Positions 12,694 to 39,262 are shown, counted from the first letter of the stretch. The stretch: DNA of 64,000 bases from Candidatus Daviesbacteria bacterium (GCA_030699125.1 JAUYKM010000009.1:204958-268957), one strand, 5' to 3'. Numbers and translations are program-made. Notes: generated from the sequence alone by a model not told the origin.

Positions 12694-14018
12694 TAACATT
12701 TGCTCCTATGAAAGTTTCTGTTTTAGGACTGGGAAAACTTGGATTACCGCTTTTAGCAACCTGTGCTTCAAAGGGATTCCTTAGTTATGGATACGATATT
12801 AATAAAGAAATTCTCAGCAAACTGGGCAAAAGTATAACTGATTCAAAAGAAACTTCACTAGCAACGCTTATAAAAAAATTTAAAAAAAAGATCATTACTT
12901 CAGAGAGTATTACGGATGCGGTTTTAAATTCTGATATAACATTTGTCGTTACGCCCACACCATCTAAAAAGAATGGCTCTTTTTCTAATAAATATATTTT
13001 TGATGTGGTAAAAGGGATAGCTCATGGACTCAAAGTAAAGAGTAAGTATCATTTGGTGGTGATTGTTAGTACTATTATGCCCAATTCTACTAATCAAGCA
13101 AGAAAAATTTTAGAAAAAAACTCCGGAAAGATGTGTGGCAAAGATTTTGGTTTATGTTACAACCCAGAATTTATAGCCTTGGGTAGTGTAGTCGAGAATC
13201 TACTGAATCCAGATTTTGTGTTAATTGGGCAATCAGATACGAAGTCAGGCGATATTTTAGAACAATTTTATCTTAAATTTTGTAATAATCGCCCCAAAAT
13301 TATGAGAATGAATTTTGTTAATGCGGAACTGACTAAGATCTCTCTCAATACTTATGTCACAACCAAAATCTCTTATGCTAATATGTTAACTGAAATCTGT
13401 GAGAAATTACCTGAAGGTGATGTAGATGTGATCACAAATGCTTTAGGACTAGATTCCAGAATTGGGACCAAATATTTAAAAGGAGGACCATCTTTTGGGG
13501 GTCCTTGTTTTCCCAGAGATAATTTAGCCTTTATTTATTTAGCAAGGAAATTAAAATCAAATTTCCAACTTCCATTAGCAACTCATAAAACTAATCTACA
13601 ACAAACAGATAGATTAGTTAAGATTATAATGCAGTATTCTGCTAACAGTAAGATAGGCATCCTTGGTCTATCTTATAAACCTTTCACAGATGTAATTGAA
13701 GAGTCTTTTGGGCTTATTTTAGCCAAAAAATTATTGCAACAAAAGAAAATAGTAAACGTTCATGATCCTGTGGCTTTAGAAAATGTAGAAAAGGTCTTTA
13801 AGGATCAGGTGAAATATTTTAACAATATTAAAGAATGTATTGAAGAATCAGAAGTAGTTGTTATCTCATGTAATTGGCCTCAATATAAAGCTGTCGATAA
13901 GTTTTTTAAAAGCAAAGCTAAAAAAATATTAATTGACCCTTGGCGGATGATTAACCCCAAATCACTTTCTTCCAGTGTAATTTATGTACCGGTTGGTCAA
14001 AATATTAATTATCAATGA
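12690..14018 (+). CDS. UDP-glucose/GDP-mannose dehydrogenase-family nucleotide-sugar dehydrogenase (WbpA/Ugd/WecC-like)
   Basis: 442 aa. MKVSVLGLGKLGLP is the N-terminal Rossmann motif. GGPSFGGPCFPRD is the catalytic-Cys motif. The real start is probably at M7 (12708). Confidence 0.8.
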   Translation: MITFAPMKVSVLGLGKLGLPLLATCASKGFLSYGYDINKEILSKLGKSITDSKETSLATLIKKFKKKIITSESITDAVLNSDITFVVTPTPSKKNGSFSNKYIFDVVKGIAHGLKVKSKYHLVVIVSTIMPNSTNQARKILEKNSGKMCGKDFGLCYNPEFIALGSVVENLLNPDFVLIGQSDTKSGDILEQFYLKFCNNRPKIMRMNFVNAELTKISLNTYVTTKISYANMLTEICEKLPEGDVDVITNALGLDSRIGTKYLKGGPSFGGPCFPRDNLAFIYLARKLKSNFQLPLATHKTNLQQTDRLVKIIMQYSANSKIGILGLSYKPFTDVIEESFGLILAKKLLQQKKIVNVHDPVALENVEKVFKDQVKYFNNIKECIEESEVVVISCNWPQYKAVDKFFKSKAKKILIDPWRMINPKSLSSSVIYVPVGQNINYQ

Positions 14019-15238
14019 TAAGTCTTAGAATATACATAATAGCATTGGCTGCTCATGGCCAAGGTATTTCAGGTTCTGATCGGATTTTTATTGAGTTTGC
14101 AAAAGTTTGGTCAAGAAGAAATTCTGTGACAATTTATGTTTGGGAGGAAGGGTTCAAGATGTGCCAAAGGCAACATCTTGAGATATCAAATATAAGCAAA
14201 GCTTCCCTTTTGCAAAAACAAAACGTCAAATATCAAATATCAAATATGGGAATATGGAGGAAGTTTGGTTTTGTTATAAATTATCTGGCACGGATTATAG
14301 AAGGAATAAGATTGGGTTTTTCCATTAGATTAGAAAATTCACCGTCAATTATTGTTTACTCTGCTTCTGAGTTTTGGATGGATTCTATACCTGCCTTAAT
14401 TCTCAAATTGAGATACTCAAAAATAAAATGGGTGGCGGCTTGGTTTCAGACAGCACCAAAACCTTGGGTGGGGTTTACGGAAGGTGAAAGAAGCAATACT
14501 TATAAGTTGAGTGCTTTTCTTTATTGGTTAGCTCAACTACCTATAAAACCTGTTATTTCTCATTTTGCCGACTTTATTCTAGTGAATAATGAACAGGAAA
14601 GAAAACAGTTCCCCATTCTTAATAAAAAAAACAGAGTAATTGTTGTTTTAGGAGCTGTAGATTTAACACAGATAAATCAATGGAAAAAGAAATTTAAAAA
14701 TTTACCTAAAATTTATGATGCGGTTTTTCAAGGAAGATTTCATCCACAGAAAGGAGTTGTGGAACTTATTGATATCTGGAAACTAGTAGTTAATAAAAAA
14801 AATGATGCTAAATTGGCTCTTATAGGTGAAGGTCCTTTAATGGAGGATGTGAAACAAAAGATAAACCAGTTGATGTTGCAAAAAAATATCAAACTCTTTG
14901 GTTATGTCTTTGATGGCCCCAAGAAATATAAAATATTTGCCCAATCTAAATTGGTAGTCCATCCTGCTTTTTATGATTCTGGAGGCATGGCAGCAGCAGA
15001 AGCTATGGCATTTGGTATTCCCGCTATTGGATTTAATTTACCTGCATATAAATCATATTATCCAAAAGGGATGTATAAAGTTCCAGTCAATAATTTAATG
15101 GTATTTGCTGATACAATTTTAAATCTCTTAGACAATAAAAAATTATACTTAGAATTGGGAGATGAGTCTAAGCAGATGATTTCTAAAAATTGGTCATGGG
15201 ATAAAAGAGCAAATGAGGTATTAGCTAGATTGTCATAG
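14015..15238 (+). CDS. GT4 (GT-B fold) glycosyltransferase
   Basis: 407 aa. The C-terminal GGMAAAEAMAFGIPAIGFN is an EX7E-type motif. Confidence 0.75.
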   Translation: MISLRIYIIALAAHGQGISGSDRIFIEFAKVWSRRNSVTIYVWEEGFKMCQRQHLEISNISKASLLQKQNVKYQISNMGIWRKFGFVINYLARIIEGIRLGFSIRLENSPSIIVYSASEFWMDSIPALILKLRYSKIKWVAAWFQTAPKPWVGFTEGERSNTYKLSAFLYWLAQLPIKPVISHFADFILVNNEQERKQFPILNKKNRVIVVLGAVDLTQINQWKKKFKNLPKIYDAVFQGRFHPQKGVVELIDIWKLVVNKKNDAKLALIGEGPLMEDVKQKINQLMLQKNIKLFGYVFDGPKKYKIFAQSKLVVHPAFYDSGGMAAAEAMAFGIPAIGFNLPAYKSYYPKGMYKVPVNNLMVFADTILNLLDNKKLYLELGDESKQMISKNWSWDKRANEVLARLS

Positions 15239-15267: not shown

Positions 15268-15483
15268 ATGTTGATTTTGATAAGTTTATTATCCATTTTG
15301 TTAATTTTTCCAAATGAAGTAAATGCTTATCTTGATCCCGGATCAGGCAGTTTATTTCTGCAAATGATTTTAGGATTTATATTGGGTGCTTTAATTTCTG
15401 TAAAAGTATTTTGGAAACAGGCCGTAAACTTTATAAAAAATCTTACTCGCAAGAAGGATAAAACTTCAAGTAATGAGCAGTAA
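15268..15483 (+). CDS. Small hydrophobic protein (2 predicted TM)
   Basis: 71-aa ORF with two hydrophobic helices; it overlaps the next gene's start. There is no homology evidence. Confidence 0.3.
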   Translation: MLILISLLSILLIFPNEVNAYLDPGSGSLFLQMILGFILGALISVKVFWKQAVNFIKNLTRKKDKTSSNEQ

Positions 15484-16846
15484 TTTTTCAAATGGTTCTT
15501 TTAGAGATCCCAGCGGACGTGTGTTTTTAGAAAATGGGAAAATTTACAGGACAATAGATTATTCATATAAAGATAATTATGATCAATTAATTAAGTCCGG
15601 TTTGTATGCCAAACTTACCAGTCTAGGTTTGTTGATACCTCACAGGGAAGTAAAAACACCAAATAATACTGTCTATAGAACAATTAGACCTGAGCATATT
15701 CCTTTTGTGTCCTATCCTTATGAGTGGTGTTTTAGTCAGTTTAAAGATGCCGCCTTGACTACTCTTAGAATTCAGAAAATTGCTTTGGAAAATAACATGA
15801 GTCTTAAGGATGCCAGCTCTTTCAATATCCAGTTTTTTAGGGGTAAGCCCATTTTAATTGATACTCTCTCATTTGAAAAATATCAGATAGGTTTGCCGTG
15901 GATAGCATATAGGCAATTTTGTATGCATTTTTTAGCACCTTTGCTTTTAATGAGTCAAAAGAATTTAGAATTCAATAAAATCCTTTCTATTTATATAGAC
16001 GGAGTACCTCTTAATTTGACCAGTACACTATTGCCCAAAAAAACATATCTTAATTTTTCTGCCCTAACTCATATTCATCTCCATTCCCGAATGGAAAAGC
16101 ATTTTGGTGGAAGAAAAGTTGCCTCGGGTGGGAAATCCCTCAGCAAAAAAACTCTCATAGCTCTAGTGGAAAATTTGGAAAAAACCATTCAAAACATTAA
16201 ACTTAAAAATGAAATTAGCCACTGGAGCAAGTACTATCAGGATAATAGCTATTCCTCAAAAGCCTTTTCCCATAAGAAGAAAATAGTTGATGATCTATTA
16301 AAGTCTCTAAATATAAAAACAGCCCTGGATATAGGTTCTAATACGGGATTTTTCAGCAGGCTTTATGCTAAGCGGGGGATAAATACTATCTCCATAGATA
16401 ATGATCATCTCTCAGTAGAAAAAAATTATCTAACTTGCAAAAAAGAAAATATAGATAAATGCTTACCTCTTTGTGTAGATATTACAAACCCTTCCCCTTC
16501 AATTGGCTGGAATAATGAAGAAAGATTATCGTTTATTGATCGAGGTCCTTTTGATCTTATTTTAGCGTTGGCATTGATACATCATCTGGCTATTGGCTAT
16601 AATATCCCATTGGAAAATATTGCTAAAATGTTTAGTAAATTAGGTAGAAATATTATAGTTGAGTTTGTAGCTAAAGCTGATCTCATGGTACAGAGATTGC
16701 TGGCAAACAGAAAAGACATCTTTCCAAATTATACCAGGGAGAATTTTGAGATAGAATTTAGCAAATTTTTTCAAATAAAAAAAGTAATAAATATATCTGG
16801 TTCAATAAGATCTATGTATCTTTTTAAAAATAGAATTGATATATGA
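15473..16846 (+). CDS. Two-domain protein: uncharacterised N-terminal domain fused to a class I SAM methyltransferase
   Basis: 457 aa. The C-terminal half carries LDIGSNTGFFS (motif I) and an acidic post-beta2 residue. The N-terminal ~270 aa (SFRDPSGRVF...) is unassigned. Confidence 0.55.
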   Translation: MSSNFSNGSFRDPSGRVFLENGKIYRTIDYSYKDNYDQLIKSGLYAKLTSLGLLIPHREVKTPNNTVYRTIRPEHIPFVSYPYEWCFSQFKDAALTTLRIQKIALENNMSLKDASSFNIQFFRGKPILIDTLSFEKYQIGLPWIAYRQFCMHFLAPLLLMSQKNLEFNKILSIYIDGVPLNLTSTLLPKKTYLNFSALTHIHLHSRMEKHFGGRKVASGGKSLSKKTLIALVENLEKTIQNIKLKNEISHWSKYYQDNSYSSKAFSHKKKIVDDLLKSLNIKTALDIGSNTGFFSRLYAKRGINTISIDNDHLSVEKNYLTCKKENIDKCLPLCVDITNPSPSIGWNNEERLSFIDRGPFDLILALALIHHLAIGYNIPLENIAKMFSKLGRNIIVEFVAKADLMVQRLLANRKDIFPNYTRENFEIEFSKFFQIKKVINISGSIRSMYLFKNRIDI

Positions 16847-19388: not shown

Positions 19389-20045
19389 ATGAAGTTTATC
19401 GATAAACTTAAAACCCTTACTCCATTTTCATATATGTGGTTTCTCAAAAGAAATATTGGAGAAGCCAAGACTATACTAGATTTAGGATGCGAAGATGGCA
19501 GGTTGCTTGAACTTTTATCCTTTGGGGAGAAGTGGCAAGTGACAGGTGTAGATATATATAAAGAGAATGTGGAAAAAGCATCTAGAAGAAATATTTTTGT
19601 TAAAGTGATTAAGGGAGATGTAGTAGAAGTTTCAAAAAAATTTGTAAAATTGAGAAAAAAATTCGATGTGGTTTTTTGTTCGCAAGTGATAGAACATATT
19701 GAGAGAAAAAAGGGAGAACAGTTATTTGATCTTGTTGATAAATTAGCAAGAAAAAGAATCGTGATTGGAACACCGAAAGGATTTATGAATCAACCGCATG
19801 TTTTTTTGGGAAATAATCCTCATATGCACCATAAATCTGGGTGGACTATAGAAGATTTTAAGAATCATGGGTATAAAGTTTATGGGATAGGTTTTTGGCC
19901 TATCTGGAAGGAAGAAGGATTAGCAAGAATAGATAATAAACTACTTTTCCTTACAATGACAATCTTAGGTTATATTTTTTCTCCAATAGTTTACTATTTC
20001 CCTACACTCGGAGCGGGAATTTTGGGTATTAAACAAAAGGTATGA
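19389..20045 (+). CDS. Class I SAM-dependent methyltransferase
   Basis: 218 aa. ILDLGCEDGRLLE is motif I. It is paralogous to the C-terminal half of the 20042 gene. Confidence 0.7.
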   Translation: MKFIDKLKTLTPFSYMWFLKRNIGEAKTILDLGCEDGRLLELLSFGEKWQVTGVDIYKENVEKASRRNIFVKVIKGDVVEVSKKFVKLRKKFDVVFCSQVIEHIERKKGEQLFDLVDKLARKRIVIGTPKGFMNQPHVFLGNNPHMHHKSGWTIEDFKNHGYKVYGIGFWPIWKEEGLARIDNKLLFLTMTILGYIFSPIVYYFPTLGAGILGIKQKV

Positions 20046-21646
20046 AAAAAGCTTTGGTATCAGTAGTTATAGTAACAAAGGATAGAAAAAATGATTTAAT
20101 TGAGTGTACTAATTCCTATATTAAATCAACATATAAGCCAATAGAAATTATAGTTATAGATAATGCCTCAAAGCCTTCTTTATTAACATGGCTACCAAAA
20201 AAATATCCAAAAGTTAAACTTATTACTTCTGATAAAAATCTAGGTGCAGCATCTGGGAGAAACTTAGGATTTGATCATTCGAAAGGTGAGTATATTCTTT
20301 TTACAGATGATGACGCTGTTTGTGATAAAGATATGATTACTCAATTAGTGAAAGTTTTCGAAGATAAAAATGAAGCAGGAATTGTTCAACCGTTAGTCTA
20401 CGATAAGCATCGAAAGAATATGCTGCAAGGTGCAGGTCATGATATTGATCTTACAACAGGAAGGATTAGAGCATCAGGTGTGAAAGAAGTTGATAGGGGA
20501 CAGTATGATGGTTTAAGGGAAGTGCCGATGTGTGGTTGTGTGTGGATGGTAAAAAGGGAGGTCTTTGAAAAGATTGGCAGCTATGATCCGGATTATTTTA
20601 TTCCATATGAAGATTGCGATTTTTCTGTAAGGGCAAGGAATGCAGGATTTAAGCTCTATTGTATATCTTTGGGTAAGACTTGGCATCGAGGCCCTAAGAA
20701 TACATTTGTTCATCCCTGGATAGAATGGCTTGGTATTACTTCCCCCGAAAGAGCATACAGAATTGCCAGAAATAAAATGATATTCATGAGAAAAAATTCA
20801 CCATTTCCTAACAATCTTATTTTTTTCTTTTTGTTTCTTCCAATATATACTTTAGCTCATAGTTTAATTATTCTATTGACGGGAAAGTTCGATATCTTTT
20901 TAAAGTATTGGTTAGGAGTTATATCCGGAGTTTGGTATGCTATAACTTTCCCTGTCAGAGATATTGTTAGATCTAACTATAGGAAGATTGATAAATTATC
21001 ACGTCCTATAAAAATGTTCCTAATTGCAACAACAGATCCTGTTAATTGGGTAATTGATACAAAAAGTGAATCTATTCTGGATTTGGGTTGTGGACCTGGT
21101 AAATTAATGGAATTTATAAAATTCAAAATGAAGGTAAGAAAAGCAGTCGGTGTTGATCTCTTTGCTCCTTATATTGAAGAGGGAAAATTAAGAAAAACTC
21201 ATGATCAATTTATATTGGAAGACGTAAGAAAAGTGAAATTTAATAATAAATCTTTTGATATTGTACTTGCCTCTCATGTACTTGAGCATTTAGGTAAAAA
21301 TGATGCTTGGAAACTTTTGAGTAATATGGAAAAGTGGGCAAAAAGACAAGTTATTGTGGCAACGCCAATTGGTGAACATTACCATCCTCCTGAGGATGGT
21401 AATCCACTACAGCTTCATCATAGCGCTTTCCAGCCTGAAGATTTTGAAAAAAGAGGTTATAAAATACTAAAATATGGCTGGAAATGGTTACTTGGAGATA
21501 AGGGATTAGTTCATAAAATAGATAATGATTTGATCAGAAAAATCATCTATACATTTAATATTTTGATTACCCCCATACTTTATTTATTTCAAGAAAGCTG
21601 TGACTATATTTTTGTAGCTATTAAAAGGGTAGATGAAAAGTTATAA
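20042..21646 (+). CDS. Bifunctional GT2 glycosyltransferase / SAM methyltransferase fusion
   Basis: 534 aa. The N-terminal half (VSVVIVTKDRKND ... FTDDDAVCDKD) is GT2. The C-terminal half (ILDLGCGPGKLME ... VLASHVLEHL) is a methyltransferase. Both halves are paralogous to the two upstream stand-alone genes. Confidence 0.75.
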   Translation: MKKALVSVVIVTKDRKNDLIECTNSYIKSTYKPIEIIVIDNASKPSLLTWLPKKYPKVKLITSDKNLGAASGRNLGFDHSKGEYILFTDDDAVCDKDMITQLVKVFEDKNEAGIVQPLVYDKHRKNMLQGAGHDIDLTTGRIRASGVKEVDRGQYDGLREVPMCGCVWMVKREVFEKIGSYDPDYFIPYEDCDFSVRARNAGFKLYCISLGKTWHRGPKNTFVHPWIEWLGITSPERAYRIARNKMIFMRKNSPFPNNLIFFFLFLPIYTLAHSLIILLTGKFDIFLKYWLGVISGVWYAITFPVRDIVRSNYRKIDKLSRPIKMFLIATTDPVNWVIDTKSESILDLGCGPGKLMEFIKFKMKVRKAVGVDLFAPYIEEGKLRKTHDQFILEDVRKVKFNNKSFDIVLASHVLEHLGKNDAWKLLSNMEKWAKRQVIVATPIGEHYHPPEDGNPLQLHHSAFQPEDFEKRGYKILKYGWKWLLGDKGLVHKIDNDLIRKIIYTFNILITPILYLFQESCDYIFVAIKRVDEKL

Positions 21647-24600
21647 GAGTCTTTTACCGATTGCTATATTTGTCCTACTTTCAACAATTCTGATATTTTC
21701 TTGGTTTAGGTATGGATATTTATATGGTGGAGGAGATGTAGGTATACCTTCATATAATCCGGCAAGGGTTCTAGAATTTGCCAAAAATATCTGGTGGGAG
21801 GCGTCTGCTCCTGGGGCACCTGTTGCACAGGGGTTAACTTCCGTACCAATGCAGTTTTTTCAAACTACTCTTGCAAAAATTGGCTTACCGTATTTTTTAA
21901 TTCAAGCAGTGTTATTTTGGATCATCCTTTTTTCAATGGGGATGGGTATGTATTGGGTGGGACTGACAGTTTTTGGGTCGAAAAATTTAATTCTTGCTAC
22001 TCTCTCTGGCCTTTTTTACATGCTAAATCCATATACAATGATTCAAGTTTGGCACCGCTCTATCTACAATACATTTTTTCTAGCAGCTGCATTTCCATTT
22101 CTTTATATATTCTGGAGTTATTGGATAAAAAGGGGAAAATATTATCTTCTATTGCTATTTCTCCTGGTCAATATTTTGAGCGTTTATATGTTTGGTACCT
22201 TAGGATTTATTTTTGCCATACTTTTTTTACTGTTGTTTGAAAGCTTGATAGAAATTTTTTTGCCTTGGAAAGGAAAAGCTCATTTAAAGACTATCATATT
22301 CAGATCTATTTTGGGGATAATCTCCTTTTTCATTATTCATATTTGGTGGCTTTGGCCAGTTTTTAATATTACTCCTCTAACTGTTTCCCAACAGCATACC
22401 ATTGGTGAAAACTTAGCAGTTTTAAGAGGAATCAGCAGTCAAACTATAATTCCCTATAGCCTAATAGGTATAAATCCTTTCTATCTTTATGAGGTTGCTG
22501 ACTGGGGGGAAATTTTTGACTTTTCATTTTTCCGCTTCAGTCCTTATCTAATTTTAATTTTTTTGATCCCAGGAATATGGAAATCCTTAATAACTCAGGG
22601 TTTAACTAAGTGGGCGTTACTATTTTTTACAGGGATGTTGTTGCTTAAAGGGGCAGCCGCTCCTTTTGGAAATTTATTTTATTTAGCTTTCAGTAACCTA
22701 TTTATTTTAGGTACTATAAGAAATCCTTTTGAGAAGTTGGGAATCTTTTTACCCTTTTCGGCGGCAATACTTTTTGCGCTGGGGGTGGATTGGATAATAA
22801 AAAGAATTAAATTGAAATTTATTGTTTTCCCTGTGATTTTTATAACCTTCTTTATAATATTTGGAATAAATTTATGGCCGATGTGGTTGGGAAAATTGTT
22901 TGACAGTAGGGAACAATCAAGTTTTGTGGTAGTTCCCAACGATTACAACCAGGTTGATGATTTTATAAAAAGAGAAGGAAAAGATGGAAAAATTTTACTA
23001 CTTCCCTTAAATTCCGGTGAATCAGCCAAATATAATTGGTTAAAAGGATACCATGGTTTGGCTCTGGGCCAGCATTTATTTACCTCCCTGCCCTCAATTT
23101 CGCACGGTTTTAATGTAGCTTATGTTGATAATGCTATTGATGCCTTATCTAAATCCTTCAACCCGGATAGTCAGACTGACAAGAAAAAGATTCTCGCTTT
23201 CCTGCAAGCATTTAATATTAGATATATTATTCTACAAAATAATTTAGACTGGCGAGTTAGTAAAACATTGGAACCGAAAAAAATAGAACAACTGCTGTCG
23301 AGTTTAGATTTCTTAGTTCTAAAGGGACAATTTGGTGAATTAGAGATTTTTGAAGTAAAGGAAGATTTCTTTTCTCCAAGAATTATTTTATCTTCCAATA
23401 TTCAGTATTTAAATTTACCATCAGCAAATATTTGGCCATATCTTTTGAAAGAAAAAGACGGTAATTTTATTACTCCTATTAATAAAGACAATGAGGATGT
23501 TAATCCTTTTCAGGTGGGAGAAGTAATACTGGTACCGCAGAATTTTTATATCTATGATTTAACGATACCTCCAATAGAAAGAGCCGTTGGGGAGTTACCT
23601 GCAGCCAGCAGAATTTTACCCAATAACCCATTGTATTTTTTAATTAGTTTAAAAGAGTTAGTGCAGCTTCTACCTTTAGTCTATCAAGATAAGTTTATTT
23701 CACAAATTAACTTTTCCGGAAAAAGACTGATTGAGGCTTATAAGTTACAGGAAAAAGAAAAGTCTTCCATAGTTTCTACAATTAATTCATATAATAATTT
23801 AATTGCTGATATTTTTGAAGGAGATTTCCTAAAGAAAGAATTGAATCTTTCAATAAATCGGGAAAGTTTACTGAATGATGTTTTCAATAAGCACATCAGC
23901 ATTTTAAATTATTTAGAATCTCAGACTGAGGGTCAGGATCAAGAGGCAGTGAAAGAAGCATTTGTTAAGTTGAATAGTTATCTAATTAGCCATGATTTGG
24001 TACCAAAATATTTAACTGATTTTAAACCCTCTTTATATCAAATATCAAACCTTTATATTCCGCAAGACGGTGGATATAACCTTTTTTTAACTAGAGAAAA
24101 CACAGAGTCTATTTATCAGAATCAGTTGAAAGAGTTTCATTTCCTAATAAATGGACAAACGTACAATCTTACGGGAGAGACTCAAGATCAGTTTATAGAT
24201 TTTGGCCAACTTAATTTTAAGAAGGGGCAGTATGAAATTGGATATGAAGTAATTGATTCAGTGAATCTAGTCGGTGACTTGGAAAAAATTAAAACCGAAG
24301 GACAAGTAAGTTATCTCAATGGTGAGTGGGAATCTACATCAGGAGAACACGAACCCTCATATATAGAAATTCCTATAAATCCGGTTAGTCCTCATACAAA
24401 TTATCAAATTCAATTTGATTCTTGGATTAAACTGGGAGATAAATTTAAGATACAGCTAATTCAAGAGACGGATATATTTGATAAAAAAATAAATGACCAT
24501 AAAAGAGATTTCGAAAAGGTAGTATTTAGAAATATTTACAATAATTATTGGAATGAAAATATTTTTATTTTCACACTTGATGAAAAAAGTTCTAAAGCCA

Positions 24601-25133
24601 GTATTCGGATAATTTTGGAACCTTGGGATGATTGCCGAATAATCTTAGTCAATAAAAAGTTATGTGATAAAAAAGATTTTCGCTTCCCCTTTGAACATAA
24701 AAGCTCTATATCATTAAGAGATATAAAGCTGGTCAGAAAACTTAACAATAGATTATTTATCAAATCTACCAATAATGAGCTAGAAACCGGAAGTATTGAC
24801 TCCAATCAAGTAATAAATCTTATGAGTATAAGTCCGACCCTATTTAATGGGAAAATTAAAATAACAAAACCGACATTTTTGATCTTTAAGGAAAGTTATC
24901 ATCCAGACTGGAAATTATCAATTAAAGATGGAAACTTTAATAATAATCACCTGCAGAGATTTTTGGCAAATGGTTACTCTAATGCCTGGTATATAGATCA
25001 GGAGGGTACATATGAGTTTAGTTTAGAATTTACTCCTCAAAAACAGGTTTTGATAGGAATTTTAATAAGCGTTGGTTATTTTATAATAATAATTATCTTA
25101 ACTTTTTGGCAGATTAGAAGGAGAGTTAAATGA
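21633..25133 (+). CDS. Giant polytopic membrane protein, YfhO/AftD-like GT-C architecture (paralog 2)
   Basis: 1166 aa. N-terminus SWFRYGYLYGGGDVGIPSYNP...IWWEASAPGAP. A ~430-aa multi-TM domain is followed by a ~700-aa soluble region. The C-terminal module YHPDWKLSIKDG...NGYSNAWYIDQEGTYEFSLEFTPQ precedes a final TM. Confidence 0.55.
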   Translation: MKSYKSLLPIAIFVLLSTILIFSWFRYGYLYGGGDVGIPSYNPARVLEFAKNIWWEASAPGAPVAQGLTSVPMQFFQTTLAKIGLPYFLIQAVLFWIILFSMGMGMYWVGLTVFGSKNLILATLSGLFYMLNPYTMIQVWHRSIYNTFFLAAAFPFLYIFWSYWIKRGKYYLLLLFLLVNILSVYMFGTLGFIFAILFLLLFESLIEIFLPWKGKAHLKTIIFRSILGIISFFIIHIWWLWPVFNITPLTVSQQHTIGENLAVLRGISSQTIIPYSLIGINPFYLYEVADWGEIFDFSFFRFSPYLILIFLIPGIWKSLITQGLTKWALLFFTGMLLLKGAAAPFGNLFYLAFSNLFILGTIRNPFEKLGIFLPFSAAILFALGVDWIIKRIKLKFIVFPVIFITFFIIFGINLWPMWLGKLFDSREQSSFVVVPNDYNQVDDFIKREGKDGKILLLPLNSGESAKYNWLKGYHGLALGQHLFTSLPSISHGFNVAYVDNAIDALSKSFNPDSQTDKKKILAFLQAFNIRYIILQNNLDWRVSKTLEPKKIEQLLSSLDFLVLKGQFGELEIFEVKEDFFSPRIILSSNIQYLNLPSANIWPYLLKEKDGNFITPINKDNEDVNPFQVGEVILVPQNFYIYDLTIPPIERAVGELPAASRILPNNPLYFLISLKELVQLLPLVYQDKFISQINFSGKRLIEAYKLQEKEKSSIVSTINSYNNLIADIFEGDFLKKELNLSINRESLLNDVFNKHISILNYLESQTEGQDQEAVKEAFVKLNSYLISHDLVPKYLTDFKPSLYQISNLYIPQDGGYNLFLTRENTESIYQNQLKEFHFLINGQTYNLTGETQDQFIDFGQLNFKKGQYEIGYEVIDSVNLVGDLEKIKTEGQVSYLNGEWESTSGEHEPSYIEIPINPVSPHTNYQIQFDSWIKLGDKFKIQLIQETDIFDKKINDHKRDFEKVVFRNIYNNYWNENIFIFTLDEKSSKASIRIILEPWDDCRIILVNKKLCDKKDFRFPFEHKSSISLRDIKLVRKLNNRLFIKSTNNELETGSIDSNQVINLMSISPTLFNGKIKITKPTFLIFKESYHPDWKLSIKDGNFNNNHLQRFLANGYSNAWYIDQEGTYEFSLEFTPQKQVLIGILISVGYFIIIIILTFWQIRRRVK

Positions 25134-25468
25134 AAAAAGGCAAAATCATAAAATTTATTTCGGCGTTTTTTATAATTTTCCCTCTGATATTTTTTGCAAA
25201 TACTACCTCGTTAGCTAATAGTGAAGTTATACTTTTGCAGAATTTAATTTTTTCTGTTTCTTTAGCAAGTCTATTAATTTGGCCGTATCTTAAAAAGTAT
25301 TACCTTATATTGTGCTTAATCCTAATTATTGTAATGGTTTTTTTATCAACTTTTAAATTACTTGAAGCTGCAGATTATGCTGGTAGTACCGCTTTTGGAA
25401 TAATGTTCTTTGTTTTATTAATTTATCTACCTGTATTAGTTAGAAGGGGACATATTAATGAACTATAA
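25130..25468 (+). CDS. Small 4-TM membrane protein, candidate lipid-linked-sugar flippase subunit (GtrA/ArnE-like by architecture only)
   Basis: 112 aa with four hydrophobic helices. Its start overlaps the stop of the preceding giant gene. It is a paralog of the 28909 gene (shared C-terminal YLP.L.R.G). Confidence 0.4.
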   Translation: MKKGKIIKFISAFFIIFPLIFFANTTSLANSEVILLQNLIFSVSLASLLIWPYLKKYYLILCLILIIVMVFLSTFKLLEAADYAGSTAFGIMFFVLLIYLPVLVRRGHINEL

Positions 25469-28400
25469 TCGTTTTAAATCGCCCTTAATTTTTTTTCTTT
25501 TATTTTCCGCCACTTTAATTTTTATCTGGTTTAAACAGGGATTAATCTATGGAGGTGGAGATGTTGGTTTGCAAACTTATAATCCACAGAGAACTTTGGA
25601 AAATGCGCAATATATCTGGTGGGAGGCGGTTGCCCCCGGAAACCCTATTCCCCAAGGGTTAACAGCTGTTCCATTTCACTTTATTTTTTCCAAACTGCAA
25701 CTGATAGGTTTTGGTCCGGTTCTTCTGCAAGCCACGTTATTCTTTTTGATTTTATTTTTTATGGGTTACGGGATGTATAGATTACTTTTATCTATTTTTA
25801 ATGTAAACAAATTTTACGCCATTTTGGGCGGTTTATTCTACATGATTAATCCATATATGATGGTGCAGGTATGGCATAGATTTGTTCACTCGACTTTTTT
25901 TTTGGCAGCTGCACTGCCATTTTTGGTAATTTTTTGGACAAACTGGATTAAAAAAGGTAATTCTTTTTCTCTTTTGCTCTTTTTATTTACCAATCTGATA
26001 GCTGTTTATTTATATGGAACTTTAGCTTATTTATTAACCGTCTGGATATTGCTTTTTCTGATAACTCTTGGAGAAATTATTATTCCCTTTACCAATCTCA
26101 AACATTCAAGTAGGTTGTTAGTTAAATTCTTAATAGGCTTCATTTTGTGGCTGTTAACTAATAGTTGGTGGTTGGTACCTACTTTTAGTGTTGGGCCAGC
26201 AACATTCGCTCAACAACATACAGGTGAAGAAAGTCTTGTAACTTTAATTAACATCAGTAAACAAACGATTATTCCTTACTCATTGCAGCTTGTTAACCCA
26301 TTCTATCTATTTCTCCAGGCAGAATTGGGACAAGTTTATGCAAATGGCCTTATGAGAATAATTCCTTGGCTTTCAGTCATTTTTATATTGATTGGCTTGA
26401 TAAGTGGGTTAAAACAGAAGAAAATTGTGCTTTATTCATTGATATTTTTAATTGTACTACTTTTTGCAAAAGGAGCTGCTTCACCATTTACTTATCCATA
26501 CATCTTTGGCTTTGAACACTTGTTTAGTCTTGGAATTTTAAGAAATCCCTTTGAAAAAATAGGTATCCTTTTGCCATTTGTTGGTAGTATTCTTTTGATA
26601 GCAGGAATAGGATCATTAAGGACATTTTTTTCAAGATTTAACAGAGTCTATTATATTAATTCAGCAATTATACTTTCCTTTGTTGCTTTAATTATTTTTC
26701 ATTGGCCAATGTTTATTAGTCAACCATTTGGTAAACCGAATAATCCGGGTTATGTACAAGTCCCCCAAAGTTATAAAGACACAGATAATTGGATTAAAAA
26801 TGAGGTTAATATAAATTATAAAAGTAACATAGGTAAGATACTGCATCTCCCTCTACCCCTTGGAGAAAGCGTTTCGTATAAATGGAGGTGGGGATATAAC
26901 GGACTTGAATCTTCGGACTTACTATTTAGTTCACTACCCTCAATCTCGCATGGATTTAATATCAGTCGATTAGATGATTCTTTAACTGCATTATCTTTGT
27001 CATTTCTTAATTTCGGTATTAGCAATCAGAATTATATTTTGCGTCTTTTGCAAAATTTTAATGTTAGATTTATCGTTCTGCATAAAGATATTAACTGGCT
27101 TGGAGGAGATTTATATGACCCCACTCTTATTGAAGAAAAACTTAATCAATTAAATTTTCTAAAAAAATCTGCATCATTTGAAGACTTGTTAGTTTATAAA
27201 GTTTCAGATGATAATTTTAAACCAAAGATAAATTTAACGGTTAATTATCAGCTAATATATCCATCAAATAATGGTACGTTTTGGCCTTGGAGTCTAACTA
27301 ATGATAATCTTATGATTACTCCTTCTTTGGATGATCAGATAAACAACGATACGATTGATTTGGCAAATCAAGTGATAGTTTTTCCCGAGTCTTCATTTAA
27401 CTATCCACACTCTGTTTTCATTAATAATTTAGTTGACCAAATTGCTAGTAGTGAAGCATTAGCTCAATCATTAATTTCTGAGATAAGGAAGGTAAAGCCT
27501 ATTTTATTGCAAAACGGTGAGATAAATGCTGAACACATAAATGACAAGTTGATTTCAGCAACTGAAAAGATGATAGTAATGTTGAAAGCTAAAAGAGAAA
27601 ATTCTGAAATTACTAATAGTCAACTAGATGATTATAAGATGGACATGGAAACTATTTTCTCTCAAGACTTAAGAAATTCTAGGTTATTACTTTACATAAA
27701 TGAAAGAGATATGAGTCTCTTTTTACAAGTTCATTTTCATTCATTGCCCAAATTAAAAGAGGGATTAAATCCTAATATTCAAATACAGGTAGATGGAATA
27801 TCCCAGTATCTAAATAACCAATTAATCAGATATAACCTTATCCCGCAGTACTCACTCAAATTAGATACAAAAGAAGGTATAGATAGTCAAAAAGTTTTTA
27901 AATTTAAGATACCCAAAAAGTATCAATATGAAATTTTGATGATAGATATAAAAGGTAGCACCCTCTACCCGACCTTCCTACAAAAGATAAATTTAAGTAT
28001 CAATGGTCAGGTTAAGGAATTAACTGGTCAATTAAAAGAGAATGTTATGTCTTTTGGGTATTATGAATTTGATTCTGGTGATGTGGAGATAGGATACAAT
28101 ATTATTTCTTCATCAAATCTGGCTCAGTCATTTGATAATTTAATTAAGATTGGGAATGTAACTATAGCAGATGGTGTGATAAAGGTAGAATCAATTGGAG
28201 GAATTGGGTATATCGAAAGTTCAATTCCTGGCGCTAGGGGGGGAGATGTCTACCGAGTCAGTTTTGAAGTTATGTCACAAAATGCTAATGGTTTTAATTT
28301 TCAATTGGCTCAAGATATAGACAATATCAATGAAGCAGGTAAGAAAGTACCACAACTGAATGAGTTTATTAATCTAACACCAAACAATTGGCAGCACTTA

Positions 28401-28919
28401 AGGTTTACACTAAACCCGTTAAAGTTAACTACTCAAGAAGCATCAATAAGGTTGATAGTTTCTTCTAACCCACAATCATTAACACAATCGGCTATTTCGA
28501 TAAGAAACTTAAAAATAGAAAAGATATTAAATAATGATATAGTGCTGAAAGCTGTTTTAAATGAACAAAACAGTGAAGATGATGGGGGGCAAATATTGGA
28601 TATATCACAGAAGAGTCCAGTACTTTATCATGGAAAAGTAAAAATTATCAAACCTTCTTTTTTTATTTTTAGTGAGACATTTCATCCGGGATGGAAACTG
28701 ACCTTAAGCGATGGCCACAAGAATTTTTCACCAAAAGAGCACTTGATGGCCAATCTTTATGGTAATGCTTATTTTATAGATCAAATTGGCGAATATGATT
28801 TTATCTTAGAATTTGAGCCACAAAGATTGGTAAATAGGGGGGCTCTAATTGCATTTACAACGTATGTTGGTTTAATTATGTTTATAATTTGGAGGAGATT
28901 TAGAAAACATGAGAGTTAA
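25458..28919 (+). CDS. Giant polytopic membrane protein, YfhO/AftD-like GT-C architecture (paralog 3)
   Basis: 1153 aa. N-terminus IWFKQGLIYGGGDVGLQTYNP...IWWEAVAPGNP. The C-terminal FHPGWKLTLSDG...NLYGNAYFIDQIGEYDFILEFEPQ module precedes a final TM. It is collinear with paralog 2. Confidence 0.55.
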   Translation: MNYNRFKSPLIFFLLFSATLIFIWFKQGLIYGGGDVGLQTYNPQRTLENAQYIWWEAVAPGNPIPQGLTAVPFHFIFSKLQLIGFGPVLLQATLFFLILFFMGYGMYRLLLSIFNVNKFYAILGGLFYMINPYMMVQVWHRFVHSTFFLAAALPFLVIFWTNWIKKGNSFSLLLFLFTNLIAVYLYGTLAYLLTVWILLFLITLGEIIIPFTNLKHSSRLLVKFLIGFILWLLTNSWWLVPTFSVGPATFAQQHTGEESLVTLINISKQTIIPYSLQLVNPFYLFLQAELGQVYANGLMRIIPWLSVIFILIGLISGLKQKKIVLYSLIFLIVLLFAKGAASPFTYPYIFGFEHLFSLGILRNPFEKIGILLPFVGSILLIAGIGSLRTFFSRFNRVYYINSAIILSFVALIIFHWPMFISQPFGKPNNPGYVQVPQSYKDTDNWIKNEVNINYKSNIGKILHLPLPLGESVSYKWRWGYNGLESSDLLFSSLPSISHGFNISRLDDSLTALSLSFLNFGISNQNYILRLLQNFNVRFIVLHKDINWLGGDLYDPTLIEEKLNQLNFLKKSASFEDLLVYKVSDDNFKPKINLTVNYQLIYPSNNGTFWPWSLTNDNLMITPSLDDQINNDTIDLANQVIVFPESSFNYPHSVFINNLVDQIASSEALAQSLISEIRKVKPILLQNGEINAEHINDKLISATEKMIVMLKAKRENSEITNSQLDDYKMDMETIFSQDLRNSRLLLYINERDMSLFLQVHFHSLPKLKEGLNPNIQIQVDGISQYLNNQLIRYNLIPQYSLKLDTKEGIDSQKVFKFKIPKKYQYEILMIDIKGSTLYPTFLQKINLSINGQVKELTGQLKENVMSFGYYEFDSGDVEIGYNIISSSNLAQSFDNLIKIGNVTIADGVIKVESIGGIGYIESSIPGARGGDVYRVSFEVMSQNANGFNFQLAQDIDNINEAGKKVPQLNEFINLTPNNWQHLRFTLNPLKLTTQEASIRLIVSSNPQSLTQSAISIRNLKIEKILNNDIVLKAVLNEQNSEDDGGQILDISQKSPVLYHGKVKIIKPSFFIFSETFHPGWKLTLSDGHKNFSPKEHLMANLYGNAYFIDQIGEYDFILEFEPQRLVNRGALIAFTTYVGLIMFIIWRRFRKHES

Positions 28920-29244
28920 TAAATTGATTTTGAGCATAATTATTTTTATTATTTCATTACCAATTTTTATCTGGTTGGAATCCGGATTTGCCATTAAATC
29001 TGCTACTGATTTTGTAAAACCATTAATATTCTCAGCCTCTTTGGTAATCTCATCAGTAAGATTTTATAAACATTATCTTTTGATTATATCCTTGACTCTG
29101 CTATTTTTGATGGTTATTTTTTATCTTTTTTGGCAAATTCCTACTGCAGATTGGCTGGGTAGTGTTGGCATAGGGATGTTTACTATCTATATTATTGGAT
29201 ATTTACCAGAATTGATAAGAAAAGGGTATGTGGAAAAATTATGA
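28909..29244 (+). CDS. Small 4-TM membrane protein, paralog of the 25130 gene
   Basis: 111 aa with four hydrophobic helices. Its start overlaps the stop of giant paralog 3. Confidence 0.4.
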   Translation: MRVNKLILSIIIFIISLPIFIWLESGFAIKSATDFVKPLIFSASLVISSVRFYKHYLLIISLTLLFLMVIFYLFWQIPTADWLGSVGIGMFTIYIIGYLPELIRKGYVEKL

Positions 29245-29405
29245 TTATAACCTTTATACTTTTTCAAATAGGATTAATAATGGTATTTTTGGTAATTACT
29301 GGTAATCATCCGGGTTTCGCTCAATATCTGGTTAAAATTACCTTCTTTATACTAGTTATCGCTATTATTTTTTATAATTCGAAATTATTCAATGCAAAAA
29401 AATAA
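29241..29405 (+). CDS. Possible 54-aa two-TM micro-protein (not in ORF track)
   Basis: ATG at 29241 overlaps the upstream stop (ATGA), and the stop at 29403-29405 overlaps the start of the next gene. It is entirely hydrophobic. Support is weak. Confidence 0.25.
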   Translation: MIITFILFQIGLIMVFLVITGNHPGFAQYLVKITFFILVIAIIFYNSKLFNAKK

Positions 29406-32079: not shown

Positions 32080-33339
32080 ATGCTAAAATCCATACTTTCA
32101 ACTGCCACTTTCCGACAATCCCAAATAACTATTCTTGGAACACTGATAAATGGTGGGCTGGGAGCAGTTTTTTATATACTGCTGGCACGATATTTGGGTC
32201 CCGCGGACTTTGGACTTATTACAATTGCTCTAACTACAATGGTACTATTTTCAGATATTGCAGATATTGGAACCAACACCGGTCTAATCCGCTTTGTCTC
32301 TTCAAATTTAGGGCAAAACAGAGATAAAGCATATCGGTTTTTAAAATTAAGCCTAGAGATAAAACTGTTTGCCTGGGCAATATCTTTTTTAATTATTTTT
32401 TTTCTGGCGCCATTTTTGGCAACTCAACTTTTTCACAAAGCAGAGCTGATTTTGCCCTTAAGACTCACCGCTTTTGGAGTAGGAGGAGCACTTCTTTTTA
32501 CATTTGTTACATCTGCTTTACAAGCATATCAAAAATACTTCCTTTGGAGTATCATAAATATTTTTACCAACTCATTGAGATTAATTCTACTTATTATTTT
32601 AGGTTATTATCTTTTGCTTAATGTTGAAAGCAGTCTAATTGTTTATATTATTTTACCCTTTTTTGGTTTTTTTATCTCACTTTTTATCCTTCCTGCAAGA
32701 AAAATTCTTATAAGTAAAAATGAATTTAGTTTATCCGGAGAACTTTTTAAATATAATATTCCTGTTGCAATATTCACCGTGATTGCTGCCTTTTCGGCAA
32801 GACTGGATACTTATTTAAATGCGATTTTACTTTCCGCCAGAGACGTGGGAATTTATGGAGCAGCGAATAATCTGGTACAAATAATGCCACAACTGATTTC
32901 TGCATTGGGATTGGTTGCCGCACCTAAATTTGCCTCCTTTCAAAACAATACGCAGATGTTAACTTATTTTAAAAAATTCCAATTATTTGTCTTAGGGCTT
33001 TGTCTTTTGGGAATTTTAACTATCCCTCTTTCAACATATCTTATTCCCATACTTTTTGGCGGACAATATCAGGAGGCAGCTTTGCCATTTATATTTCTAT
33101 TTTTGGCAATGCTTATTTTCCTATTTTCTATTCCAGTACATCATAGCGTTATTTTTTATTTTGGCAGACCGGATGTTTTTATCTGGGTTTCAATAGGACA
33201 TCTATTAATAATTGGAGGAGTAGGATATTTTATGATCCAAAATTTTGGTGTCTTGGGCGCATCAATAACTGTACTAGTTGGGACGATCTTTAATTTTCTA
33301 TATCCTTTAATCTGGTTATTAATTAAACTTAAGAAATGA
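32080..33339 (+). CDS. Wzx-like oligosaccharide flippase / polysaccharide biosynthesis protein (MOP superfamily)
   Basis: 419 aa with ~12 TM helices. The N-terminal LGTLINGGLGAVFYILLARYLGPADFGL is typical of PST-family flippases. Confidence 0.65.
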   Translation: MLKSILSTATFRQSQITILGTLINGGLGAVFYILLARYLGPADFGLITIALTTMVLFSDIADIGTNTGLIRFVSSNLGQNRDKAYRFLKLSLEIKLFAWAISFLIIFFLAPFLATQLFHKAELILPLRLTAFGVGGALLFTFVTSALQAYQKYFLWSIINIFTNSLRLILLIILGYYLLLNVESSLIVYIILPFFGFFISLFILPARKILISKNEFSLSGELFKYNIPVAIFTVIAAFSARLDTYLNAILLSARDVGIYGAANNLVQIMPQLISALGLVAAPKFASFQNNTQMLTYFKKFQLFVLGLCLLGILTIPLSTYLIPILFGGQYQEAALPFIFLFLAMLIFLFSIPVHHSVIFYFGRPDVFIWVSIGHLLIIGGVGYFMIQNFGVLGASITVLVGTIFNFLYPLIWLLIKLKK

Positions 33340-34133: not shown

Positions 34134-34790
34134 ATGAATAAAATAAAGAATTTTTATGATCAATTTTGGTCAGAAGATAAAGGGGAATTTGGAAGATATA
34201 TCAGGAATTCTTATCTGCCGCAATTTTTTAAAAAAGGGGAACTGGTTTTGGATGTGGGATGCGGAGATGGGGTGATTGCCGATTATTTACAAAGAAATGT
34301 CAATGTTAAGGTTATAGGTATTGATATTTCAGAAGAAGCCATCAAAAAGGCAAGAAACTTAGGGATTGAGGCGAAAGTTTTAAACAGCGAGGATAAATTT
34401 CCCTTTAAGGACAATACTTTTGACGCTGTTTTCTGGGGAGACAATATTGAACATCTTTTTAACCCTACCTCTTGCGCAAAAGAGATAAAAAGAGTCTTAA
34501 AAAAAGATGGCAGATTGATTTTATCTTGTCCTAATATGGGCTACTGGAGGTACAAAATTAAGTATTTAATTTCAGGGAGTTTAGCAGATACTGAATGGAC
34601 AGGACTCAAACCCTGGGAATGGTCGCATATCCGTTTTTTTAATCTTAAGATTTTGAAGGATTTTTTATTTTCTTGTGATTTTGAAAAAATTACAAAAGTG
34701 CTTGGTGTCAGTGAACGAAGACTGGATAAACCTTTTCTTGCAATTAACCCATCCTTTTTTGGAATGATTCTTATTTTGGAGGTAGTATGA
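34134..34790 (+). CDS. Class I SAM-dependent methyltransferase
   Basis: 218 aa. LDVGCGDGVIADYL is motif I. Confidence 0.7.
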   Translation: MNKIKNFYDQFWSEDKGEFGRYIRNSYLPQFFKKGELVLDVGCGDGVIADYLQRNVNVKVIGIDISEEAIKKARNLGIEAKVLNSEDKFPFKDNTFDAVFWGDNIEHLFNPTSCAKEIKRVLKKDGRLILSCPNMGYWRYKIKYLISGSLADTEWTGLKPWEWSHIRFFNLKILKDFLFSCDFEKITKVLGVSERRLDKPFLAINPSFFGMILILEVV

Positions 34791-35470
34791 GCGCCGGTAC
34801 ACAAACGTTAGAAAGTATGAGTCAGGCGGTTTGGTATAACAGATGGACTCTGGATAAATTTAAGAAATATTTGAAAGGTGATATTCTGGAGGTGGGTTGC
34901 GGTATCGGAAATTTTACAGATAGTCTTAATGAATATGGTGAGATATATGCTATTGATATAGACAATAGTTATATTAATAAGGTTAAGGAACTGGTTTATG
35001 GTAGAGCTGGATTTGGAGATATAGAGACTGGCGAATATTTTTTTAAGGATAAAAAGTTCGATACTATTGTTTGTCTTAATGTATTAGAACATATTCAAAA
35101 GGATGAGGTGGCGGTTAAGAATTTATATAAACTTTTGAAGGATGAGGGTCACTTAATTTTACTTGTTCCGGTGCATCCATTTATGTTTGGGAAAATTGAT
35201 GAATCCATTGGTCATTTCAGAAGATATACCAAAGAGAAAATAATTCAAGAGATAAATGATGCTGGATTTAAAATAATTTTATCGAGGAAATTAAACTTTT
35301 TAGGTGCCATTGGCTGGTGGTTAGCTCAGAAAGTTTTTAAAGAAAAAACCATCAAAGAAAGTAATATTCAAATATTTAATATTCTTGCCCCACTGGTTTT
35401 ACCGCTGGAAGATATCATAGAACCTCCGCTTGGTACATCAATTCTGGTAATTGCTCAAAAAAAATTATGA
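34787..35470 (+). CDS. Class I SAM-dependent methyltransferase
   Basis: 227 aa. LEVGCGIGNFTDSL is motif I. Confidence 0.7.
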   Translation: MSAGTQTLESMSQAVWYNRWTLDKFKKYLKGDILEVGCGIGNFTDSLNEYGEIYAIDIDNSYINKVKELVYGRAGFGDIETGEYFFKDKKFDTIVCLNVLEHIQKDEVAVKNLYKLLKDEGHLILLVPVHPFMFGKIDESIGHFRRYTKEKIIQEINDAGFKIILSRKLNFLGAIGWWLAQKVFKEKTIKESNIQIFNILAPLVLPLEDIIEPPLGTSILVIAQKKL

Positions 35471-38504: not shown

Positions 38505-39262
38505 AACTTGATGTAGGTTCTTTTTATGACGATACGGAAAGATTGAAATACAATCCGGAAGGTTCCTTTAAGAAAAGAGGCTTTCTAAAAAGACTGGTAG
38601 CTTTTGATGACAGATTTGTAACTGTTAAAAAGGAATTAGAAGAATTAATCGGACAAAAATCAACTATTTTGGTAAAGATTTTAGATATTGGGGTAGGTGA
38701 TGGTATATATGAAGCAATTTTGGATGAAAGAATAAGAAAAAAATGTGAAATTTATGGAATTGACATAAGTGAAGGACAACTTAAGAGGGCTAAAAGATTC
38801 TTAAAAGAAGTCAAAGAGGTGGACCTAAATACTGAAAAGATCCCCTATCCCGAAAACTCATTTGATATTGTTATTGCTTCGGAAATTTTGGAACATGTGT
38901 TTTACCCTGAAAAAATTTTGCAGGAAGCAGAACGGGTTCTAAAAAAGGAAGGATATATGTTAATTACTATTCCCAACAGTGCTTGTCTGCAACTTAGAAT
39001 GGCGATTCTCTTAACCGGTCATTCTACCCTATTAAATTATCCGACAAATAGGGAGCATATCAGATTTTTTACCTCTAATGATATTAAAAAGATGATTAGC
39101 TCAAAATTAGAAGTAATTAAAGTGCTAGGCTTAAGTTCTTTTTTGTTGGATAAATGGAATTTCTTTATCAGGATTCCCATACCAAGAATAATACAAATTA
39201 CTGGCAATAGATTTCTTCCCAGTTTGGCTTTAGGTAATATGATAATAATAAAGAAAAAATGA
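38501..39262 (+). CDS. Class I SAM-dependent methyltransferase
   Basis: 253 aa. ILDIGVGDGIYEA is motif I. Confidence 0.7.
   Translation: MKLDVGSFYDDTERLKYNPEGSFKKRGFLKRLVAFDDRFVTVKKELEELIGQKSTILVKILDIGVGDGIYEAILDERIRKKCEIYGIDISEGQLKRAKRFLKEVKEVDLNTEKIPYPENSFDIVIASEILEHVFYPEKILQEAERVLKKEGYMLITIPNSACLQLRMAILLTGHSTLLNYPTNREHIRFFTSNDIKKMISSKLEVIKVLGLSSFLLDKWNFFIRIPIPRIIQITGNRFLPSLALGNMIIIKKK

Follow-up and report, generated by a model that had tools for sequence, protein, structure and literature searches.

How do the very large glycosyltransferases of ultra-small bacteria work with the small membrane proteins that are encoded directly after them? The question is raised by a 64-kb stretch of DNA, here called the window, from a metagenome-assembled genome of Candidatus Daviesbacteria (Microgenomates, Patescibacteria/candidate phyla radiation, CPR). 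Two genes for membrane proteins of more than 1150 amino acids (aa), giants A and B, lie there in tandem, and each is followed by an overlapping gene for a four-helix membrane protein of about one tenth that size, minis A and B (Table 1). Two further genes of the window, C and D, encode more distant relatives of the giants. The six open reading frames (ORFs) reported in an initial annotation were all found at their coordinates by ORF check and translation. That annotation regarded the giants as YfhO/AftD-like enzymes of the GT-C glycosyltransferase class and the minis as GtrA/ArnE-like flippase subunits. Our analysis indicates that the giants are, judged by their predicted fold, AftD-type GT-C enzymes, and that giant and mini form a pair that is conserved across genomes. 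We propose, giving it about an even chance, that the two together are a split AftD, in which the mini would be a dedicated membrane subunit that matches the last four transmembrane (TM) helices of AftD, TM13-16.

Giants A and B are collinear paralogs, as first described, with 36% identity over their full length in BLASTP (approximately 1190 aligned columns, E = 0), and their minis are paralogs of each other as well (34% identity over 83 aa, E = 8e-12). The genes are tightly packed. The stop codon of A and the start codon of mini A share an ATGA at 25130-25133, mini A and B overlap by 11 nt, and so do B and mini B, so that each mini start overlaps the stop of its giant as had been noted. The starts are preceded by purine-rich Shine-Dalgarno-like sequences. 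At NCBI, the products of A, mini A, B, mini B and D are all named hypothetical proteins.

A structural model of giant A was built with AlphaFold2 (AF2) from 26 orthologs (mean pLDDT 79.7). It comprises 11 N-terminal TM helices, an extracytoplasmic alpha/beta domain (residues ~430-650), a helical domain (~660-790), all-beta domains of the beta-sandwich type (~800-1130) and a last TM helix (1135-1165). When the model was compared to solved structures with Foldseek, the AftD entries 6w98, 6wby and 6wbx led the matches (E = 4.9e-17 to 2e-15), with a TM-score of ~0.45 over the whole chain and ~10% identity in the structural alignment. The next matches were STT3 structures of the oligosaccharyltransferase (OST; E = 5e-6 to 5e-4, target TM-scores 0.42-0.47). 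The multi-helix N-terminal membrane domain thus matches solved GT-C enzymes, and the GT-C fold on which the initial annotation had staked its reading is present in the model. The beta domains partly match the beta-sandwich domains of CBM22, GH101 and Vip3/Cry, and in the model they appear to resemble carbohydrate-binding modules (CBMs). The helical domain (window positions ~23610-24000) is a DUF5667-like insert that separates the GT-C soluble domain from the beta-sandwich domains, and DUF5667 was matched in 13 of the 26 aligned orthologs. No such helical domain is mentioned for the soluble region in the AftD paper, which describes a GT-C domain, three CBMs and a beta-sandwich domain.

Sequence profiles of the orthologs point to the same family. 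The Pfam model GT-C_AftD (PF11847) was matched by 14 of the 26 aligned orthologs (E ≤ 0.01, best E = 1.9e-21). Searches of PDB sequences with giant A and with the giant profile gave no relevant match and did not reach the AftD sequence. An acidic motif, GGGD, directly follows the first TM helix; its aspartate, D35, is present in 25 of 25 aligned orthologs, the remaining one of the 26 being gapped there, and the conservation of the acidic loop-1 motif that had been in question is thereby confirmed. The aspartate in the same place in AftD (D41) is one of five residues essential for its function (bioRxiv 10.1101/2019.12.22.885152). D35 is thus the conserved acidic residue of the first extracytoplasmic loop that is a hallmark of GT-C enzymes, with a putative catalytic role. 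W140-H-R142, K339 and R363-N-P-x-E-K368 are also invariant across the aligned giants. We call giants A and B AftD-like GT-C enzymes because of the Foldseek matches to AftD and STT3, the PF11847 matches of their orthologs and the invariant loop-1 aspartate. The YfhO half of the earlier label is not supported, since the YfhO family (PF09586) was matched neither by A, B, C or D (E ≤ 1) nor by any of the 26 orthologs (E ≤ 0.01). The GT-C assignment itself is already annotation-level knowledge, because some orthologs carry the automatic name "arabinofuranosyltransferase family" at NCBI.

The minis were modelled by AF2 as a compact bundle of four helices (pLDDT 87.3), in line with their first description as four-helix membrane proteins of 111-112 aa. 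Both termini are predicted to be cytoplasmic because both are basic. As a single-sequence search with mini A returned only one near-identical protein, an alignment of the family was built from syntenic loci. Conserved positions are located in outer loop 1 (E24-x-G26), at the start of helix 4 (G85-x-x-G88-F89) and in the cytoplasmic tail (Y99-x-P101-x-x-x-K105-K106-G107-x-x-E110); in the helix cores the alignment has no conserved charged or polar residue, nor a conserved acidic residue embedded in the membrane. A profile of the family collected 74 proteins from a word-indexed database, which carry neither Pfam domains nor informative names, and an exhaustive HMMER search of 1.84 billion representatives gave 99 matches (~100 clusters), all of them small and stand-alone apart from one. 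This exception, the top match P0195 (4342 aa), proved to be a translated tandem repeat in which 67 stretches matched, and was rejected as a hydrophobic-repeat false positive. Pfam and NCBIfam scans of the minis, and of a 54-aa micro-protein encoded after mini B, gave nothing meaningful. By these searches the minis are a narrow, unannotated family.

G+C content varies between ~31 and 39% across the window and is ~31% in the giant/mini region, a composition that lengthens random ORFs, and the 54-aa ORF carries no NCBI annotation. It is nevertheless highly improbable that the small ORFs are chance open frames in AT-rich DNA and not genes: in approximately 27 independent loci the same place is taken by homologs of 20-50% identity that share conserved motifs, the exhaustive search found 99 family members, the model of the mini is a confident one and Shine-Dalgarno-like sequences lie upstream of the starts. 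For the minis, conservation rules this explanation out.

The pairing of giant and mini is found well beyond the window. A mini homolog (~105-127 aa) is encoded directly downstream, usually with overlapping codons, of 29 of 33 giants, a set that comprises the window and those fetched genome loci in which the downstream region was assessable. A metagenome scan that was seeded on the C-terminal motif of the mini alone found 12 minis in nine loci, and all 12 were directly downstream of a giant. The metagenome contig L026:1-7978 carries three giants in tandem, in the order giant-mini-giant-mini-giant-D. Since this order of genes is repeated in 18 genome loci and nine metagenome loci, the arrangement is not due to chance, and the pair first noticed in a single window, whose conservation beside homologs had been left to be checked, is conserved across genomes. 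The exceptions are the second giants of loci L003, L013, L014 and L017, which have no four-helix mini; in three of the four a two-helix protein of 54-57 aa is encoded instead. A strict one-to-one requirement is therefore not universal. In two genomes with a single giant, the giant is followed by a divergent mini of 107-108 aa without the YLPxxIKKGYIEK tail (L019:13497-13820 and L021:13510-13836), and after it by a gene on the opposite strand for a membrane protein of 481-520 aa. The giants L010:10001-13460 and L021:9953-13517 are each broken into two ORFs by a frameshift or internal stop, and may be pseudogenes or sequencing errors.

Across genomes, the minis cluster by position, i.e. those after the first giant apart from those after the second, and the pairwise distances of giants and minis correlate (Pearson r = 0.80). 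From these comparisons we conclude that giant and mini were duplicated as a unit before the sampled Daviesbacteria diverged, and were then inherited as a pair. B-type orthologs take the second position in other genomes by the BLAST best-hit pattern, on which the assignment of giants to the A and B types rests; when the giants were grouped by identity with average linkage, the two types were not cleanly resolved.

The position of the mini gene acquires a possible meaning when the pair is set beside AftD. In AftD, TM1-11 and the soluble domains are followed by TM12, then by an 18-residue cytoplasmic loop and a four-helix bundle, TM13-16, which is found in AftD only among the Aft and Emb enzymes (bioRxiv 10.1101/2019.12.22.885152). 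The bundle lies against TM8/9 and binds an acyl carrier protein by its phosphopantetheine arm, and function is lost on truncation at T1285 or with the R1389S substitution (bioRxiv 10.1101/2019.12.22.885152). The giants share with AftD (PDB 6W98; PF11847), their best solved whole-chain match, the N-terminal 11-TM GT-C core, a loop-1 acidic residue, an extensive part outside the membrane whose CBM-type beta-sandwich domains are predicted to bind glycan, the single-helix re-entry into the membrane (TM12) and a four-helix membrane bundle next in gene order. They differ in the DUF5667-like insert, in the low identity given above and in where the chain ends. With 11+1 helices, the giants end 5-8 residues past the last one; TM12 and TM13-16, which AftD-family members hold in one polypeptide, are thus not joined in the giants, and a four-helix protein is encoded by the next, overlapping gene, a polypeptide of its own whose sequence shows no detectable similarity to AftD. 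Helix number and topology of the mini fit a continuation from TM12. It is because the giants stop after the TM12 equivalent, and because the next gene has the matching four-helix topology, that we propose a split AftD. The equivalence of the mini to TM13-16 we infer from gene position, helix number and topology; giant and mini would associate physically.

A 135-aa database fragment, P0248, lends weak Rosetta-stone support to the split AftD. In this fragment the last helix of a B-type giant is fused in frame to mini helices 3-4, with the topology kept, mini helices 1-2 missing and the junction placed between the similar basic motifs RSKIKK and SKLRK; its closest sequence is L001:13507-17258. 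The support is weak because P0248 is a single fragment whose contig is not on record, and it may be a natural fusion or an assembly artefact.

Several observations weigh against the proposal. The proteins of the window score under the PF11847 gathering threshold of 26 bits (A 20.2, B 19.0 and D 12.2 bits; C gave no match). The mini profile matched nothing at E ≤ 10 among the PDB sequences, 6w98 included, the exhaustive search with it brought up no long protein apart from the repeat artefact, and fold searches with the mini were uninformative. Four loci have a second giant without a four-helix mini, and no GtrA-type flippase was found elsewhere in the 64-kb window, so that this role may still have to be filled.

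The lack of a detectable sequence or fold link to the AftD bundle speaks for a mini that is a dedicated accessory subunit, acting in stabilisation, assembly or regulation and unrelated by descent to TM13-16. Conserved pairing and translational coupling would suit such a subunit, and there are precedents: partner proteins, some of them small, are reported for many mycobacterial GT-C enzymes (10.64898/2026.07.15.738315), and GacJ, a small 3-TM protein, acts with a glycosyltransferase (PMC8035078). However, the mini gene would then follow the TM12 equivalent, and agree with the AftD bundle in helix number and topology, by accident; AftD is also the nearest of the solved relatives of the giants. 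We would regard an unrelated accessory subunit as rather unlikely, with about half the probability of the split AftD. If the mini does correspond to the AftD bundle, it could also be a free-standing regulatory version of it, whose conserved Y-x-P-x-x-x-K-K-G-x-x-E tail docks a cytoplasmic ligand and which switches the extracytoplasmic GT-C enzyme on or off, each GT-C paralog of the cluster having its own control subunit. We offer this only tentatively, as an improbable reading; its minimal unit may be the helix 3-4 hairpin, as in P0248, and the micro-protein upstream of D may be another such unit.

The split AftD has also to be weighed against the flippase function that was first assigned to the minis. 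As a flippase, the mini would translocate the polyprenyl-phosphate sugar that the adjoining GT-C enzyme uses as donor; it would be the functional counterpart of GtrA/GtcA, mycobacterial Rv3789 or ArnE/ArnF, and would complete a glycosylation system with three components, a GT2, a flippase and a GT-C enzyme. The gene for Rv3789, itself of the GtrA type, lies close to those for arabinosyltransferases. Candidate GT2 synthases of polyprenyl-phosphate sugars are encoded in the cluster, no other small multi-helix flippase candidate was found in the 64-kb window, and with ~112 aa, four TM helices and both termini inside, the minis match GtrA-type proteins (PMC8035078). However, neither GtrA (PF04138) nor the small multidrug resistance (SMR) family is among the 25 most frequent Pfam families listed for 75 minis (E ≤ 1), which bears out the initial remark that obvious GtrA motifs are lacking. 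The exhaustive profile search yielded no more than ~100 small relatives and made no connection to GtrA, a very large family, the helix cores are devoid of conserved charged or polar residues, and the cluster already has a Wzx-type flippase. Moreover, the minis are paired and co-duplicated with the giants and diverge about as fast, whereas GtrA-type flippases serve several GT-A/GT-C pairs, are often encoded elsewhere and are not duplicated with each GT-C enzyme (PMC8035078). With regard to SMR-type proteins (ArnE/ArnF, EmrE), no sequence match is listed, and the minis have no conserved membrane-embedded acidic residue. The assignment as GtrA/ArnE-like flippase subunits is therefore not supported, and we consider a flippase function improbable, somewhat more so than an unrelated accessory subunit.

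Other known systems resemble the giant/mini pair in part. The GtrA-GtrB-GtrX and CsbB-GtcA-YfhO systems share the expected logic, in which a GT2 enzyme makes a polyprenyl-phosphate sugar that is flipped and then transferred outside by a GT-C enzyme, and they too have a small 4-TM protein encoded alongside; the minis differ in not belonging, by sequence, to the GtrA family and in being present once per GT-C enzyme, and the giants in having no YfhO match. ArnT with ArnE/ArnF likewise combines a GT-C enzyme with small 4-TM proteins and an ArnC-like GT2, and the window also has an ArnC-like GT2 and a DegT-type aminotransferase, but the minis list no SMR/EamA-type match and have no acidic residue conserved within the membrane. 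ArnT is, in addition, much smaller than the giants and has no AftD-like soluble domains. The small subunits of eukaryotic OST and the predicted partners of mycobacterial Pmt, AftA-C and MptB are further cases of a GT-C core that needs small membrane or lipoprotein partners. These belong to unrelated families, and no report describes any of them as a four-helix protein that is translationally coupled to an AftD-like gene upstream of it.

In a split AftD, each giant would be made together with its own mini by way of the overlapping stop and start codons, and the mini would act as the membrane subunit dedicated to that giant, the counterpart of TM13-16. The short ArnC/AglJ-like GT2 enzymes of the cluster would make a polyprenyl-phosphate-linked sugar that is then flipped outward, and on the outer side of the membrane the giant would attach this sugar to a polymer bound by its beta-sandwich domains. 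Sugar and acceptor probably differ from those of AftD, since CPR bacteria are not known to make arabinan.

The two remaining paralogs were identified mainly by profile comparison. Giant A and C share 27% identity over the N-terminal 490 aa (E = 9e-47) as well as the C-terminal module, and A and D match weakly in BLASTP (E = 4e-5). Profile-profile alignment with hhalign gave E = 2.1e-81 between the A/B and C families, and a probability of 99.9% with E = 7.8e-33 over 539 columns between the A/B and D families. By the BLASTP and hhalign matches, A, B, C and D are all paralogous, as had been claimed. The TTG start of C at 8325 is the most upstream candidate only, as the family alignment starts near residue 21, and the gene after C encodes an NAD synthase. 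Two sequence features that had been attributed to all four proteins are found in part of them. The GGG[DE] motif is present in A and B (GGGD) and in C (GGGE), but D has RVATD[YF], whose aspartate aligns to D35 of the A/B family in the profile alignment; the pre-terminal module is clear in A and B and partial in C, where it ends P-R, and in D. D lies downstream of the giants in 14 fetched genome loci. Residues 287-373 of D gave a sub-threshold NCBIfam match to MmpA (E = 8e-8), a model described as a mycobacterial trehalose lipid delivery protein, a second hint of a tie to mycobacterial envelope proteins.

The micro-protein gene lies between mini B and D and was included neither in the initial gene list nor in the GenBank annotation, in which the locus tags jump from 02180 to 02185. 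Its start overlaps the stop of mini B (ATGA) and its stop overlaps the start of D. Homologs were found directly upstream of D in seven other genome loci and two metagenome loci, and an eighth genome homolog is present in L011, where the contig ends before D. The likeness of the micro-protein to mini helices 3-4 is a hint only, because the hhalign probability is 36%.

The giant/mini region is part of a gene cluster for a surface glycan, at least 50 kb long, that covers the window from ~1 kb to ~55 kb. The cluster encodes enzymes of sugar-nucleotide metabolism (a nucleotidyltransferase, an epimerase/dehydratase, a DegT aminotransferase, acetyltransferases and a UDP-glucose dehydrogenase), many GT2 and GT4 glycosyltransferases, a Wzx-type flippase, a Wzy_C-like protein and two PMT_2-type GT-C proteins. 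S-adenosylmethionine-dependent methyltransferase genes or domains are unusually many, approximately ten, including one C-methyltransferase, and this abundance suggests that the product is a heavily methylated surface glycan. A GT2 gene holds the same slot upstream of the giants in related loci. The claim that two GT2 genes of the window are of the polyprenyl-phosphate type stands as far as resemblance to ArnC, AglJ and PpgS goes, but curated NCBIfam thresholds were not reached. The closest models for the gene for the 236-aa protein are ArnC, PgfS and a Dol-P-hexose transferase, and those for the gene for the 243-aa protein are AglJ (2.5e-28), PgfS, ArnC and PpgS; both proteins score far below the curated cutoffs.

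Table 1 Coordinates of the giant/mini genes, of neighbouring genes in the 64-kb window and of related loci
Feature	Coordinates	Strand	Remarks
Giant A, 1166 aa	21633..25133	+	Identical to NCBI Q8P92_02165, hypothetical protein
Mini A, 112 aa	25130..25468	+	Four-helix membrane protein; NCBI Q8P92_02170, hypothetical; overlaps A and B
Giant B, 1153 aa	25458..28919	+	Collinear paralog of A (BLASTP against A)
Mini B, 111 aa	28909..29244	+	Paralog of mini A; overlaps the end of B by 11 nt
Micro-protein, 54 aa	29241..29405	+	Two TM helices; conserved N-H-x-G-F-A loop
Paralog C, ~890-906 aa	8325..11045	+	Start uncertain; GGGE motif; no mini downstream
Paralog D, 889 aa	29392..32061	+	Distant GT-C paralog; final TM anchor
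GT2-methyltransferase fusion	20042..21646	+	Overlaps the start of giant A by 14 nt
Wzx-type (Polysacc_synt) flippase	32080..33339	+	Directly after D; synteny conserved
Short GT2, 236 aa	2717..3427	-	Candidate polyprenyl-phosphate sugar synthase (NCBIfam)
Short GT2, 243 aa	35467..36198	+	Candidate polyprenyl-phosphate sugar synthase (NCBIfam)
Methyltransferase genes/domains	3436-8308, 15473-16846, 19389-21646, 34134-35470, 38501-39262		
Second giants without a mini (other loci)	L003:13921-17603, L013:13903-17117, L017:10476-14083, L014:13858-16890		

Further multi-helix membrane enzymes of the cluster are encoded at 39975-41420, 47668-49173, 46203-47654 and 37137-38504; two of the four are the PMT_2-type GT-C proteins, one is Wzy_C/O-antigen-ligase-like and one is a 455-aa protein that faintly matches the Agl23 flippase-associated family. 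A 71-aa ORF with two hydrophobic segments (15268-15483, + strand) lies in the gap after the GT4 gene at 14015-15238. Ten of the related loci (L004, L006, L007, L011, L013, L015, L017, L018, L020 and L021) are fully syntenic with the Daviesbacteria cluster and were deposited as 'uncultured Gammaproteobacteria bacterium (binchicken...)', a taxonomy that looks to be a placeholder or wrong.

A literature search returned nothing linking the CPR to AftD-type enzymes, and the former family name, DUF3367, surfaced only in a single, unrelated paper on annotation. Three things appear to be new: that the giants are paired, in a conserved way, with a four-helix family that has no annotation, that this pair was duplicated in tandem long ago, and that it may be read as a split AftD. 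AftD is an essential enzyme of the mycobacterial cell wall, and what its C-terminal four-helix bundle does has so far only been postulated. If the split form is true, the bundle is a separable module that could be expressed, deleted or swapped alone, and its function would therefore be directly testable; if the mini is a flippase instead, it would represent a new flippase family. The finding also defines a family of unannotated small proteins with ~100 sequence clusters, together with a 54-aa gene missing from GenBank. GT-C enzymes are increasingly seen as working with small membrane partners, and the giant/mini pair is a further clear case; it fits this theme because many mycobacterial GT-C enzymes are argued to depend on partners (preprint 10.64898/2026.07.15.738315). 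For the CPR, it offers a first handle on how these ultra-small bacteria build an apparently heavily methylated surface glycan.

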